A stretch of DNA of 64,000 bases from a virus (Duplodnaviria > Heunggongvirae > Uroviricota > Caudoviricetes): IMG/VR virus record IMGVR_UViG_2562617085_000008; one strand, written 5' to 3'. Below are positions 52,901 to 58,900 of this stretch, piece after piece (positions within the stretch are counted from its first letter, which is position 1; each line of letters begins with the position of its first letter). The position numbers were made by a program.

Positions 52901-55900
52901 AGTCTGAAGTACCGGATGTGCTGACCGGGGAGGTCGAACAAAAAGTTACTGCGGACATGATGATTGAGTTTATCTGTCAGGATGGGGCTAAAACGTGTGA
53001 GGAACTGGCGGATAAGTTCGGTGTTAGCATTCGCAAGGTTGCTTCCACGTTGGCGGTCGTAACAGCAACGGGGAGCCTGGCACGCGTAAATCAGAACGGT
53101 AAATTTCGTTACTGCATACCGGGCGCTGATTTACCGGCAGAGCCGGAAGCTGCATCGGTAACGGAAACCGATGGTAAAGCCTTTCCTCAGCCAACAGGTG
53201 TTGCGTTACCAGTCCGGGAAGCGGAAACACAGGAAGAAATAAAAACTGAAAGTGTGGCGGTCACAGTGCAGTCACAGCCGTTGTTCACCAGAAAACATCC
53301 GGATGGTCTGATTTTACCATCGCTGCATGTGGCTAACCGCGAGCTGCGCCGGGCAAAAGGTCAGGTTCAGAAGTGGGAGCGTGTCTGCGCCGCGCTGCGG
53401 GAGCTGAACAAGCACCGGGATATTGTTCGGCAGATTGTCGATTCATCCGGTCGTATTGTGTCGGAAAAGTGATTGCCGGAGGCGCTTATGGCGAAACCTT
53501 TTACACACGAACAGCGTGAAGAACTGAAGGCCCGAATTATCGGGCTGGTACGCAAAAATGAACGCATGACGATATCACAACTGGAGAGAGCGACGGGAGC
53601 AGGCTGGCATTCAGTCAGACGTTGCCTTGTGGATGTACTGGCTTGCGGCGATTTATACATGCCCGGTAAATACGGTGTTTTTACATCAGAACAGGTGTAT
53701 CGCGTATGGCGTAAGGCAGCGGAGAAAACAACCGACCAGACATTGATTCGAAAGTTACCAGACGGAGAAATACGCCGCTACGACAGACAACAGAACATAA
53801 TCTGTGGCGAGTGCCGGAAGAGTGAAGTTATGCTGCGTGTACTGGCGTTCTATCAGGGCAATTTTCAGGAGGCGGTATTGTGAGTGAATTAGCTATCAGG
53901 CTTCAATTGTCGCTGGCATTCACATCAAAGGAGAAGAGCATGGAAATAAAACCAGAAGATGAGTTAAGCAATATCGTTTTATTTCCGGTAAAAGAGGATG
54001 ACCCACGTAATCAGGTTAATTTTCTTTATGAGCCATCGGAAAGAGCATATTGTCATCACGCCTCTGTTCGGGTTGACGAAAAAGAGCGTCAGGTCCGCTG
54101 TAAAATCTGCGGTGCAGTTGTGGAGCCATTTGACTGGATGCTCTCTGTGGCGAAAAGAGAAACCAGACTGGCAGATGATGTAAGGATCTTGCGCCAGGAG
54201 GAACGGGAAAGGCGGAGAAATATAGAAAAGCTAATTCAGATTGAGCGTAACGTGAAAGCGCGGATACGCAGGGTGACAAAATCCAGAACTGAATAATTAA
54301 ATTTAGCTCTGTTAAAAATTTAATCCTTAACCGGAGGTATATCAATGTCAAACGCACAGAAAGTTATTAACGCTGAAAAATATAACGAGTGGGTGAAAAA
54401 GTTCTCAGAGCAGATTTTTAAAATTACTGGCGACGAGAATGCGGCAAAAAATGAATTAGAGCCGTGGACACCTGAAGGTGTCGACCCAAATTATTGCTGG
54501 TGGGATGTTGATCCAGTTGATGCTGCAAATGAAGCTATGAGTTATCACAACGATTAATGTCAGGAGGCCGCCCGAAAGGGCGGTAATGAAAAGTGACTGA
54601 ATTAACCAAAGAGAAATTAATCGAAGAAGCCAAATTAAAAATAGCGATTGCGAAATGCTACCCCAATTCAGGGATGGCACGGGTAGAGGGCGAGTTATTC
54701 AAAATTGCACTGGCATCGCTGGAAGCAGAACCGATAGCGTGGGAATGCGGTGAAAACATAATCCTGTTTAACCCTGACACAGTTGAAGCATACGCAAAAC
54801 GTGCGGAAATATCACCTAAACCACTATTCTCCGCGCCGCCAGCGCTGGTAGTGCCTGATAAGTTGCCGCGTGAATACAGAAACGGTTGGCCTCTTGCGTA
54901 TAGTGATTATGCTGAAGGCTGGAACGACTGCCGCGAAGCCATGCTTCAGGGAGATAAATCATGATTAATCGTATCAAGCTGGAGCACATCCTCGAATATG
55001 CCAGGCAGCAGAGGCATATTGGTCAGCATTGTAAAATTCCACCAGGAGATATGGTTGAAATCATGGAGATTGCCATGCGCAAGGCTGGCAATTCTCCGGT
55101 AACTCCGGATGGTTGGATAAGCTGTAGTGAGCGAATGCCGAATACCAAAACAGCCGTTCTTGTTGCCGTGGAGTTTGACAGGAAAGGTGACTGGCGAATG
55201 AAATTGGCTACTTACATCCCGGGGCATCCTGACGCTAATGATGGGTGGATAATTCCTGGTGCGTCGTGGAAACCGTCACACTGGATGCCGCTACCAGAAC
55301 CGCCGCAGGAGGTGCGCCAATGATCTGGCCTGAAGCCTTTGCAATTACAGGCGTTGCTATAGCTATTGATTTTTTAGTATATGTTATTTGTCGGTGGGGG
55401 TAAAAACGTTCGCCGGGATTCACACCAAAGGAGGGAATATGTCGGATGATATTTCACTGGCAATGGAAGGTGCGCTGGCTGTTATTGCTGTTGTGGGCGT
55501 TTACTGCCTGGTTGTGTTTTTGATGGATCGACTAGGGAACTGAATTCATTACGATATGGGAATTCCCATATCGGGTAAAAACGGTTTGCGGTAAAGCGAG
55601 AGTTAAGTAGAATTGCTGCGGGTGCTTGAGGCTATCTGCCTCGGGCATGAACACCAACGGCAGATAGAGAAAAGCCCCAGTTAACATTACGCGTCCGGCA
55701 AGACGCTTAACATTAATCTGAGGCCATATCTATGCTCTACACACGTAGGTTAGCCTCTTACGTGCCGAAAGGCAAGGAGAAGCAGGCTATGAAGCAGCAA
55801 AAGGCGATGCTAATCGCCCTGATCGTCATCTGTTTAACCGTCATAGTGACGGCACTGGTAACGAGGAAAGACCTCTGCGAGGTACGAATCCGAACCGGCC

Positions 55901-58900
55901 AGACGGAGGTCGCTGTCTTCACAGCTTACGAACCTGAGGAGTAAGAGACCAGGCGGGGGAGAAATCCCTCGCCACCTCTGATGTGTCAGGCATCCTCAAC
56001 GCACCCGCACTTAACCCGCTTCGGCGGGTTTTTGTTTTTATTTTCAACGCGTTTGAAGTTCCGGACGGCGCCGGAATAGAATCAAAAATACTTAAGTAGC
56101 GCGCAGGGAGAAGAGGGATGGACCCCGAACAGGGGAGTGCTATTTATCTGGAAGGATTCTGTTGATGAGAATCGAAGAATTACGTGAAATTTTTAGTGAA
56201 GATGGCCTCTATACTGTGCGCGTTGAGAAGGGCGCTATTGTCAGCCACTGCCGTATTAAATGTTTACAGTCTCAACAAAGGAAGAGTGGAGCTGCGTTAA
56301 TTCATTTTGTGGATGGGCTTGTGACGGATGGTTTTATTTTGCGTGCAAATGAATTTGTCACATCGTTGCCGTCTCTGAAAGAAGCTGGGATTAAGGCTGG
56401 TTTTTCTGCTTTTGAAGATTAGTGAATTCATCTACAATTCAGCGCAGGGCTGAACCCCTGTTGAGTAACACTGTGCCACCGGAGAAAGCCGATGGCGCAA
56501 AATTCCAGACTACACAATTCTGATGATTCTGCCGTCTTTGCCAGCAGGCGCGGACGGTGTTTTCACGCATTCAAATCTGACTGGTACCAGCATCCCCCAT
56601 GCACTGAAGAACAGGCCGAATGGCTCATTCAGTGTTACCGCAGGCGCGGATGCGAGGTTAAAAAAGCCCTTAGCCTCGACTACCGTCACTGGATAATCTC
56701 CGTCAGGCCCCCTTACTCCGAACGGCCACCGCGTCCGTCCCGCACATTCCAGCAACGGATCTGGAGGTAATGTGCGGGTATTACTTCGACCTGTTCTGGT
56801 ACCGGAACTCGGTCTGGTTATCGTTAAGCCAGGCCGTGAATCAATGTCAGCATTCCATAACGGCAGAATACTGGTGGAGCCGGAACCAAAAAGCATGCGA
56901 GCTCTGCCGTCCGGGGTTGTACCTGCCGTTCACCAGCCGCTGGCGGAAGATAAATCACTACTGCCATTTTTCAGCGATGAGCGGGTGATCCGTGCTGCGG
57001 GTGGCGCTGGTGCACTGTCTGACTGGTTATTACGTCACGTGAAATCCTGCCAGTGGCTACACGGTGATTATCATCACAGCGAAACCGTCATTCACCGTTA
57101 CGGTACCGGCGCGATGGTGTTGTGCTGGCACTGCGACAACCAGCTGCGGGAGCAGACATCTGATTCACTGGATCAACTTGCTCAACAGAATCTGGCCGCC
57201 TGGATGATTGACATCATCCGTCACGCAATGAATGGCGCACAGGAGCGTGAATTATCTCTGGCTGAATTATCCTGGTGGGCGGCCTGCAATCAGGTGGTGG
57301 ATGCACTACCTGAGGCAGTAGCGCGTCGTTCTCTGGGATTACCGGCGGAAAAAATCCGCTCCGTATACCGTGAAAGCGACATCATACCGGGAGAACAGAC
57401 CGCCACCAGCATACTGAAGCAGCGCACAAAAAATATTGCGCTACCGCCTCACACCCACCAGCAACAGAACCCACCACAGGAAAAGACGGTGGTCAGCATT
57501 GCCGTTGATCCGGAGTCTCCGGAATCCTTCATGAAACGACCTAAACGTCGCCGCTGGGTAAATGAGAAATACACACGCTGGGTAAAGACACAGCCGTGTG
57601 CGTGTTGTGGTAAGCCAGCCGACGATCCGCATCACCTGATTGGTCATGGTCAGGGCGGAATGGGGACAAAATCTCACGATATTTTCACGCTACCGCTGTG
57701 TCGGGAGCATCACAACGAGCTTCATGCGGATCCGCTGGCGTTCGAAGAAAAGCATGGTTCTCAGGTTGATTTAATTTTTCGTTTTCTTGATCACGCCTTT
57801 GCAACCGGCGTGCTCGGGTAAAAGAGGTGACTGATGCTCATAGATTTGGTTTTACCTTACCCGCCGACGGTGAACACTTACTGGCGACGCCGTGGCAGCA
57901 CATATTTTGTATCAAAAGCCGGGAAGCGTTATCGCCGGGCAGTGGCGCTTATTGTTCGCCAGCAGCGACTGAAATTAAGCCTGTCCGGACGGCTGGCAAT
58001 AAAAATTATTGCAGAGCCACCGGATAAGCGCCGCCGCGACCTGGACAATATCCTGAAAGCACCGCTGGATGCGCTGACGCACGCGGGGTTGTTAATGGAC
58101 GATGAGCAGTTTGATGAAATCAATATTGTACGTGGAAAGCCAGTATCTGGTGGACGTCTGGGGGTGAAGATTTACCCCATAATGCTTGAAGGGCAGGTCA
58201 AAAAATGAAACTGGAAGATTTACCGAAATACTACTCCCCAAAATCCCCTGGCCTGACCGATGCATCGGCCTCAACGTCAAAAGATGCGCTGAGTATCACT
58301 GATGTGATGGCCGCGCAGGGCATGACACAGAATCGGGCTGAGATGGGGTTTTCTGCGTTCCTTGGGAAAATGGGCATTAGTATGAATGACAGAGAGCGGG
58401 CAACAGAATTGCTGACAGAATATGCACTCAGTCGGTGTGATCGCGTGGCGGCGTTAAGAAAACTCCCGGCAGAAATAAAACCGGCAGTGATGCGTATTAT
58501 GGCTTCGTATGCGTTTGAAGATTATGCCCGTAGCGCGGCGAGCAAAAAACAGTGCCCCTGCTGTCACGGAAAAAAATTTATTGAAAGCGAGGTTTTTACA
58601 AACAAGATCCAGTATCCGGATGGTAAGCCGCCAGTGTGGGCAAAGTGCACAAAAGGCGTGTATCCGTCTTACTGGGAGGAATGGAAAAAAGTCAGGGAGG
58701 TGGTAAAAGTTGCCTGTCCGGAGTGTGGAGGGAAGGGAGAGGTATCCACTGCCTGTAAAGATTGTCGTGGGCGCGGTGTTGCCATTCATCGTGAAGAGTC
58801 GGAAAAACAGGGTGTGCCGGTTTTCAGAAACTGTCAGCGTTGTGGTGGGCGTGGCTATGAAAGATTACCTTCAACGGAGGCATTTAATGCCATATGTAAT

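Follow-up and report, generated by a model that had tools for sequence, protein, structure and literature searches.

Within the 64,000-nucleotide stretch of Caudoviricetes DNA filed in IMG/VR as IMGVR_UViG_2562617085_000008, the whole of which is called the window here, the sequence and the ORF list place three small hydrophobic open reading frames (ORFs) on the plus strand at positions 55320–55944: one of 27 residues (aa) that directly follows a DUF551-domain gene, one of 34 aa, and a 51-aa Hok toxin (Table 1). The locus is the nin-type region, running from the replication genes to the antiterminator Q, of a lambdoid prophage. Its best explanation is that phage mosaicism has assembled three independent genetic units in this P-to-Q region, namely a real and conserved single-pass membrane micropeptide of 27 aa, a second real and independently initiated membrane micropeptide of 34 aa that is expressed in the lysogen, and what reads as a complete hok/mok/sok type I toxin–antitoxin cassette. 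The probability that this explanation holds as a whole is put at roughly 0.78, the membrane location of both micropeptides being a prediction. Taken together, this is an ordinary locus with one modestly new small-gene family.

A first-pass annotation made from the sequence of the same DNA had already described a cluster here, and its coordinates are accurate. The 27-aa peptide is coupled to the preceding gene through the overlap of its start with the DUF551 stop, the 34-aa peptide has a very strong ribosome-binding site, and a canonical Hok is overlapped in frame by a mok-like extension. A Sok-like antisense RNA had also been expected opposite the mok start, and the minus strand there does carry a putative promoter, followed by a hairpin and a U-rich tail. 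The grand average of hydropathy (GRAVY) is 1.42 for the 27-aa ORF, 1.33 for the 34-aa ORF, and 0.54 for Hok.

The 27-residue WPEAF peptide family

The 27-aa peptide belongs to a family with the signature M-x-WPEAF-TM-CRWG (TM, transmembrane segment), the one modestly new element of the locus, and it is annotated neither in RefSeq nor in any phage record inspected. By tblastn the family is present in 92–94 phage records and in 181 plasmid records, the latter mostly non-mobilizable, phage-plasmid-like replicons of ∼95 kb. Its phage carriers include 933W, VT2-Sakai, Min27, BP-4795, Vequintavirinae such as Av-05, and several siphoviruses. In IMG/VR, at least 120 stretches matched a degenerate DNA pattern written for M-x-W-P-E-A-F. 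Among the matches listed, to which the following figures refer, the ORF has exactly 27 codons in 122 of 142 cases (58 distinct DNAs, 37 distinct peptides), and residues G11, Y21, C24, R25, W26, and G27 are conserved. Over codons 8–27, the ones left free by the search pattern and the only ones used here, pairwise comparison gives pS = 0.38 for synonymous and pN = 0.15 for non-synonymous change (ratio 0.40), with per-site differences of 0.187, 0.108, and 0.341 at the three codon positions, such that the third varies about three times as much as the second. When the same codons were put in permuted order as a control, the pattern found seventeen stretches, none of which (0/17) held a short hydrophobic ORF, compared with 109 of 120 among the matches listed for the real pattern.

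Divergent ORFs that join WPEAF to a transmembrane segment are found in contigs of GC 0.40–0.66. A chance origin is excluded because the length of 27 codons has been kept over the fifty-eight DNAs at a pS of ∼0.38 and because the motif recurs over this range of GC. In six viral contigs of 56–66 per cent GC there are M-x-WPEAF ORFs of 23–34 aa, each with a hydrophobic helix and a coupled stop and start, and these high-GC sequences suggest that the family may be far wider than the coliphages. A strict CRWG pattern, run against one genome per species, matched only the representatives of E. coli and Shigella flexneri, and this strict form is therefore narrowly distributed. No WPEAF ORF follows ea22 in phage lambda.

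At 84 nt the gene is shorter than the minimum that common gene callers usually accept. The family is missing from annotations, from Pfam and PHROGs, and from nearly all protein databases because it is too short for such callers: no matching family exists in Pfam, PHROGs, NCBIfam, or PADLOC, and a protein database of 5.8 billion clusters returned four over-extended calls only. Literature searches with the micropeptide strings and the accession found no paper, and the main text of ‘The Cryptic Bacterial Microproteome’ makes no mention of them.

The start codon overlaps an upstream stop in all loci examined, in the form ATGA, ATGATGA, or TAATGA. The upstream genes encode mosaic Ead/Ea22-like proteins that end in DUF551 (...HWMPLPEPPQEV..) or in other modules (...KAMDYLKRNGLISAEDVLR, ...ENDLKNIEQEVNR), and the DUF551 gene of the window is the C-terminal module of such a mosaic protein. 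In related phages the Ead/Ea22-like N-terminal module and the DUF551 module make up one mosaic protein; in the window they are separate overlapping ORFs (123 aa at 54593–54964 and 120 aa at 54961–55323). The 27-aa peptide would be made by termination and reinitiation at the ATGA, in continuation of translation of the Ea22-like/DUF551 gene before it. A hok gene follows only 46 of 108 evaluable copies, and the 27-aa ORF therefore belongs with the upstream gene. An obligate tie to hok was considered and rejected, given that fifty-eight of the same 108 loci have no hok downstream.

The 34-residue peptide and the segment around it

An ORF identical to the 34-aa ORF, with the same neighbours, is present in prophage Sp6 of strain Sakai as ECs_5710, which is the same gene as XECs145. 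The latter was reported as a novel translated gene by Huecker et al. (2017; PMC5597208), who modelled it with 54 codons, from a non-canonical start further upstream, whereas the ATG at 55439 with its Shine–Dalgarno sequence (SD) and the RefSeq model both give 34 aa. Ribosome profiling (RIBOseq) of XECs145 in lysogeny broth (LB) gave 79 reads per kilobase per million mapped reads (RPKM) in the transcriptome and an RPKM of 346 in the translatome, with a ribosome coverage value (RCV) of 4.35 and a coverage of 0.99 (PMC5597208, S2 table). The values were lower in brain heart infusion (BHI), and the product was predicted to locate to the inner membrane (PMC5597208).

Homologues of the 34-aa peptide in the 5.8-billion-cluster database, searched with over-extended ORFs as query, are all close and all from E. 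coli. A diverged ORF of 29 aa, (V)LVLKCALAITAVMAIYCLAIVLMDRLSD, is found in phages mEp460 and Tritos, where it has its own AGGAGG and lies directly upstream of hok. The two alleles share 65 per cent nucleotide identity over 26 alignable codons, with 10.3 synonymous and 16.7 non-synonymous differences and a pN/pS of 0.56, which on so few codons is a weak statistic; by codon position the differences fall 11/4/12. Both keep ALA..AV..YCL..LMDRL, and the YCL..LMDRL part has been kept through synonymous changes.

The link of this family to hok is tight without being obligatory. Of 116 evaluable loci, a sample drawn via the 34/29-aa ORF itself and not via hok, 110 have the hok mRNA start at a fixed distance past the ORF stop (45 nt for the 29-aa type, 79 nt for the 34-aa type). 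Six loci have an intact 34/29-aa ORF followed by unrelated DNA, and many hok loci have no 34-aa ORF or retain a remnant only, such as MDHLSD. Rare 74-aa database proteins carry both the 27-aa and the 34-aa peptide in a single frame, apparently owing to a 1-nt alteration within the GGGGGTAAAAA run where the 27-aa ORF stops, and would be two-helix proteins.

The 34-aa ORF sits, with a perfect palindrome, on a segment of ∼175 bp between two exact copies of an 11-bp direct repeat, for which 0.06 would be expected in the window. 933W and pPE4 have no such segment, and in them the 27-aa ORF runs directly up to the hok promoter; the segment thus has the look of an insertion or of a joint made by recombination. 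No T-tract lies 3′ of the palindrome, which is therefore not a canonical terminator. It holds an EcoRI site (a second GAATTC is at 55543–55548), and a variant with a 1-nt indel occurs in the related loci L065 and L080.

The hok/mok/sok cassette and its genomic setting

The third unit is, as far as can be read from its sequence, a complete and canonical type I toxin–antitoxin cassette, with toxicity and neutralisation extrapolated from hokW-sokW and from plasmid R1. Hok matches Pfam HOK_GEF (PF01848) at E = 2.9e-23 with 81.6 bits against a cutoff of 22, and it also matches the NCBIfam Hok-family models with scores under their equivalog cutoffs. For mok, the corresponding ORF bears the name mokW in 933W and a MokC-like annotation in Sakai. 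The Rfam sok model RF01794 aligns to the plus strand at 55620–55794 (111.7 bits against a gathering score of 59), with its position 1 at the putative hok +1. The alignment spans from the GGGUGCUUGAGG 5′ end to the hok AUG, and the model therefore covers the hok mRNA leader containing the Sok-complementary segment. No other Rfam family scores above its gathering score at the locus; matches below that score were set aside (isrK-like, 24.9 bits; rsmX-like; ceN48-like; and a minus-strand sok-like match, 17.7 bits).

Table 1. Positions of the features discussed (window coordinates; aa, residues; SD, Shine–Dalgarno sequence; TSS, transcription start site).
Feature	Position	Strand	Remarks
DUF551-domain gene, 120 aa	54961..55323	+	Pfam DUF551 4.6e-22; RefSeq: DUF551 domain-containing protein
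27-aa ORF MIWPEAFAITGVAIAIDFLVYVICRWG	55320..55403	+	ATG overlaps DUF551 TGA as ATGA; GGAGGT SD 6 nt upstream; predicted single-pass membrane peptide
11-bp direct repeat GGGTAAAAACG, left copy	55398..55408	+	flanks ~175-bp segment with 34-aa ORF
34-aa ORF MSDDISLAMEGALAVIAVVGVYCLVVFLMDRLGN	55439..55543	+	SD AAGGAGG 55428-55434; RefSeq hypothetical WP_001278450.1
Perfect 22-bp palindrome CGATATGGGAATTCCCATATCG	55552..55573	.	100% complementary; between 34-aa ORF and hok promoter
11-bp direct repeat GGGTAAAAACG, right copy	55573..55583	+	exact copy
Putative hok promoter	55586..55613	+	-35 TTGCGG 55586-55591, 16-nt spacer, -10 TAGAAT 55608-55613, +1 G55620; read from sequence
Full-length hok mRNA	55620..56039	+	tac GGGUGCUUGAGG 55620-55631, mok, hok, fbi CCUCAACGCACCC 55994-56006, intrinsic terminator
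sok gene	55670..55775	-	-35 TTGCCT 55775->55770, 17-nt spacer, -10 TAACCT 55752->55747, TSS ~55740
mok, 70 aa	55732..55944	+	in-frame N-terminal extension of hok, same stop; SD GAGG 55720-55723 inside Sok target
hok, 51 aa	55789..55944	+	Pfam HOK_GEF; RefSeq WP_000813254.1 = hokD; protein identical to K-12 HokD

The hok −10 and the sequence downstream of it are kept in all hok loci, while the sequence upstream of ∼55604 differs by configuration. Transcription would end at a stem (56013–56030) followed by a T-tract. The predicted fold of 55620–56037 has a minimum free energy of −172.8 kcal/mol (z = −7.4) and pairs tac with fbi, which is the closure expected of a full-length hok mRNA. On the minus strand the predicted Sok RNA of ∼71 nt (∼55740 to ∼55670) has a single-stranded 5′ tail, a long hairpin, and the U-rich UGGGGCUUUU, with a fold of −29.7 kcal/mol (z = −5.3). 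The sok hexamers and their spacer are identical to those of sokW in phage 933W, annotated there as a 71-nt antisense RNA. Mutation of the TAGGTTA/TAACCTA element in the ‘pro-less’ construct (primers YO-421/422) abolished sokW expression (PMC8621323), and the sok −10 in the window is that same element.

By homology, the full-length hok mRNA would be stable, weakly transcribed, and inert through the pairing of 5′ tac with 3′ fbi, and trimming at its 3′ end would make it translatable. The Sok RNA, antisense, abundant, and unstable, would pair with the mok ribosome-binding region, thereby stopping translation of mok and of the coupled hok and prompting cleavage by RNase III. Once Sok is gone, be it through prophage loss or at induction, Hok would enter the inner membrane and the cell would be depolarised or lysed. 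All of this is already known biology. Across 99 distinct hok/sok sequences the cassette is near-invariant from ∼55604 to ∼56030, except in a patch at 55725–55745 that corresponds to the single-stranded 5′ tail of Sok and to mok codons 2–5, the mok ATG itself being invariant. A variable tail of this kind could confer copy-specific Sok action in genomes with several copies.

The region around these genes (55250–56100) matches, at 100 per cent identity, a lambdoid prophage found in E. coli O157:H7 strains such as EC4115 and TW14359. The order in EC4115 is replication protein P, DUF1627, DUF977, three hypothetical genes, and the DUF551 gene, then a 105-nt hypothetical gene, hokD, two hypothetical genes, DUF968, RusA, and antiterminator Q. 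Downstream of hok an 86-aa ORF (56162–56422) is the homologue of K-12 rem. Other RNA genes of the window (2540–3151, 48838–48889, and 60706–61106) are tRNA-Met, tRNA-Arg, two copies each of STnc100 and AgvB (anti-GcvB), and DicF, a set which indicates that the window spans parts of two adjacent lambdoid prophages.

Alternative readings and comparison with known systems

The first-pass annotation had suggested that the two shorter peptides could be additional type I toxins, which would call for antisense or divergent small RNA antitoxins that have gone unrecognised. Both are short and very hydrophobic, both stand beside a bona fide type I toxin, and promoter-like hexamers lie on the minus strand at 55463->55436 and 55404->55376. 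This is nevertheless very unlikely. Neither peptide matches a type I toxin family (Hok, Ldr, TisB, Ibs, ShoB, Fst, Zor, DinQ, and others) in Pfam, NCBIfam, PHROG, or PADLOC. A consensus scan found no minus-strand terminator at 55000–56400, though a non-canonical small RNA could escape it, and the minus-strand promoter-like matches (four, with 1.8 ± 1.3 expected) are at chance level; the apparent −10 at 55441->55436 is the mere complement of the AATATG start context of the 34-aa ORF. Stop/start coupling to a larger gene, as seen for the 27-aa ORF, is atypical of type I toxins. Nor does either ORF have the tightly repressed autonomous translation that marks these toxins, because the 27-aa ORF is stop-coupled and the 34-aa ORF has an exposed, strong AAGGAGG and an RCV of 4.35 in growing lysogens. 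On the other side, both peptides are conserved in related prophages, and the refuting case set out in the first-pass annotation, which includes a lack of such conservation, therefore does not apply.

Weak matches to KdpF (sub-threshold, E = 0.024), SecE, PetL, and Cmr5 were rejected as hydrophobic noise, and an origin of the two families by tandem duplication was rejected at an hhalign probability of 2 per cent. Given the lack of a family match and of an antisense terminator, the operon coupling, and the exposed SD with its high ribosome load, the two micropeptides are best read not as type I toxins but as small proteins with a single predicted membrane pass. Most likely they would act by binding or modulating a membrane protein or a membrane property, and the other suggestion of the first-pass annotation, small membrane modulators, is plausible. 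KdpF, AcrZ, MgtS, MgrB, and CydX are bacterial small single-pass membrane regulators. Like the micropeptides, these proteins have 25–50 aa, one hydrophobic helix, and short polar ends and are often missed by annotation; unlike them, they are not phage-borne, and there is no sequence similarity between the two groups, such that the likeness is a ‘works like’ analogy only.

The close linkage to hok raises a different possibility, that the 34-aa (29-aa) peptide is a functional third component of hok/sok which tunes the insertion or activity of Hok, or whose expression insulates or tunes the hok promoter. The fixed spacing was found in independently sampled loci, two alleles as diverged as these are both joined to near-identical hok/sok, and the 34-aa ORF is translated in lysogens. 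However, many loci with the same hok/sok allele are without the ORF (configurations A, D, and E, and those with remnants), the hokW-sokW of Sp5/933W works as a toxin–antitoxin pair without it, and the six loci noted above have the ORF intact without hok. The linkage may be mere co-inheritance in closely related prophages, and a third component is unlikely. It is less probable still that the short ORFs, the 34-aa one above all, are chance or decaying translated ORFs in mosaic junction DNA and not functional genes. The confinement of the 34-aa family to E. coli prophages, its place inside an indel flanked by a repeat, the moderate pN/pS, and the damaged variants described below would all be consistent with decay, but two diverged alleles have kept the ORF, the strong SD, and YCL..LMDRL through synonymous changes, the published RCV is high, and the invariant length and recurrent motif of the 27-aa family speak for a gene. 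Least probable of all is that the 27-aa sequence is no separate peptide but is added, by ribosomal frameshifting at the ATGA, to a fraction of the upstream DUF551/Ea22-like protein as its C-terminal membrane anchor. The stop/start overlap is invariant and the association with Ea22-like 3′ ends constant, as such an anchor would have it, but no slippery heptamer is evident at the junction, the ORF always has its own ATG and SD, it stands behind C-terminal modules of at least three unrelated kinds, and a search of the 5.8-billion-cluster database gave no fused proteins of this kind.

Several points weigh against the preferred reading of three independent units. The RIBOseq values of XECs145 may include multi-mapped reads from paralogous prophages, and the 162-nt ORF for which they were calculated shares sequence with the 3′ end of the 27-aa ORF. 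Frameshifts or a Leu-to-Pro change in variants of the 34-aa ORF, together with truncated remnants of the 29-aa ORF, suggest weak constraint on this family. The pN/pS values are pairwise, are not corrected for phylogeny, and come from data sets of redundant E. coli prophages. The absence of antisense RNA at the short ORFs is argued from consensus scans only. The same consensus scan of promoters and terminators detected neither the Sok nor the hok promoter (7–8 of 12 matches) because their hexamers are weak, and these assignments therefore rest on homology to sokW and on the published promoter mutation. Finally, each step of the Hok/Sok mechanism in the prophage allele is carried over by homology.

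There is reason to take note of a 27-codon gene with clear signs of selection that is carried by medically important Shiga toxin (Stx) phages and by many other coliphages. The second micropeptide gene, that of the 34/29-aa family, lies almost without exception just upstream of hok, which suggests that small genes so far overlooked may be present in, or disrupted by, the hok/sok constructs and deletions that have been published. Should either peptide have a membrane target, phage small-protein biology would gain an easy way in. A more ambitious reading, in which the WPEAF peptides are a widespread missed family with a specific membrane target and the 34/29-aa peptides a third partner linked to hok that adjusts the action of Hok or the expression of hok at prophage induction, is tentative and on balance doubtful. 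Were it true, the 27-aa peptide might act, for example, in host takeover or superinfection exclusion, or by anchoring or regulating an Ea22-like partner. Ea22-like genes are reported to influence the lysis–lysogeny decision.

The hok/sok cassette itself adds nothing new. It corresponds to K-12 hokD in intact form and is closely related to hokW-sokW. HokW is toxic and is neutralised by sokW, and the locus raises the release of Sp5 after mitomycin C (Takada et al. 2021; PMC8621323). The hokW-mokW-sokW locus of 933W/Sp5 has the same architecture as the window, and in an alignment of four sequences it is near-identical from ∼55604 (hok promoter) to ∼56006 (fbi), with the differences between 933W and the window lying mostly around the mok start and in the last Hok codons. 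Its cassette is likewise preceded by the 27-aa WPEAF ORF. The forward primer with which hokW-sokW was cloned into pBAD18, YO-432 (PMC8621323), begins 6 nt before the ATG of the Sp5 copy of this ORF, and the published construct therefore contains the whole 27-aa ORF, without its full SD, upstream of hok. 933W differs from the window at the C-terminus of Hok (...FTAYEPEE in the window, with several last codons different in 933W DNA; primer YO-560), in the patch at the Sok 5′ tail and mok codons 2–5, and in the terminator region. It also has no 34-aa ORF segment, and its cassette lies at the far end of the record beside EaA-like genes, whereas that of the window is in the nin-type region.

In the hokD (relF) locus of the K-12 cryptic prophage Qin the Hok protein is identical, and the DNA is ∼99 per cent identical from the hok SD (∼55776) through the 3′ untranslated region and the terminator into the rem homologue. 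Everything upstream of the hok SD is replaced there by relBE, with tac, the mok start, and sok gone. Homology to K-12 begins only at the hok SD, and the window therefore holds the intact, self-regulated version of the hokD locus, of which K-12 hokD is a truncated copy.

The hok/sok (parB) locus of plasmid R1, described by Gerdes and co-workers, is the founding type I toxin–antitoxin system, and the mechanism outlined above is carried over from it. It shares with the window the Hok/Gef toxin, the overlapping mok, the antisense Sok promoter in the leader, the tac–fbi closure, and the terminator. Identity of the toxins is only moderate, HokW being 44 per cent identical to R1 Hok (PMC8621323). R1 hok/sok differs in being carried on a plasmid, which it stabilises, whereas the phage allele has been reported to aid lysis and phage release.

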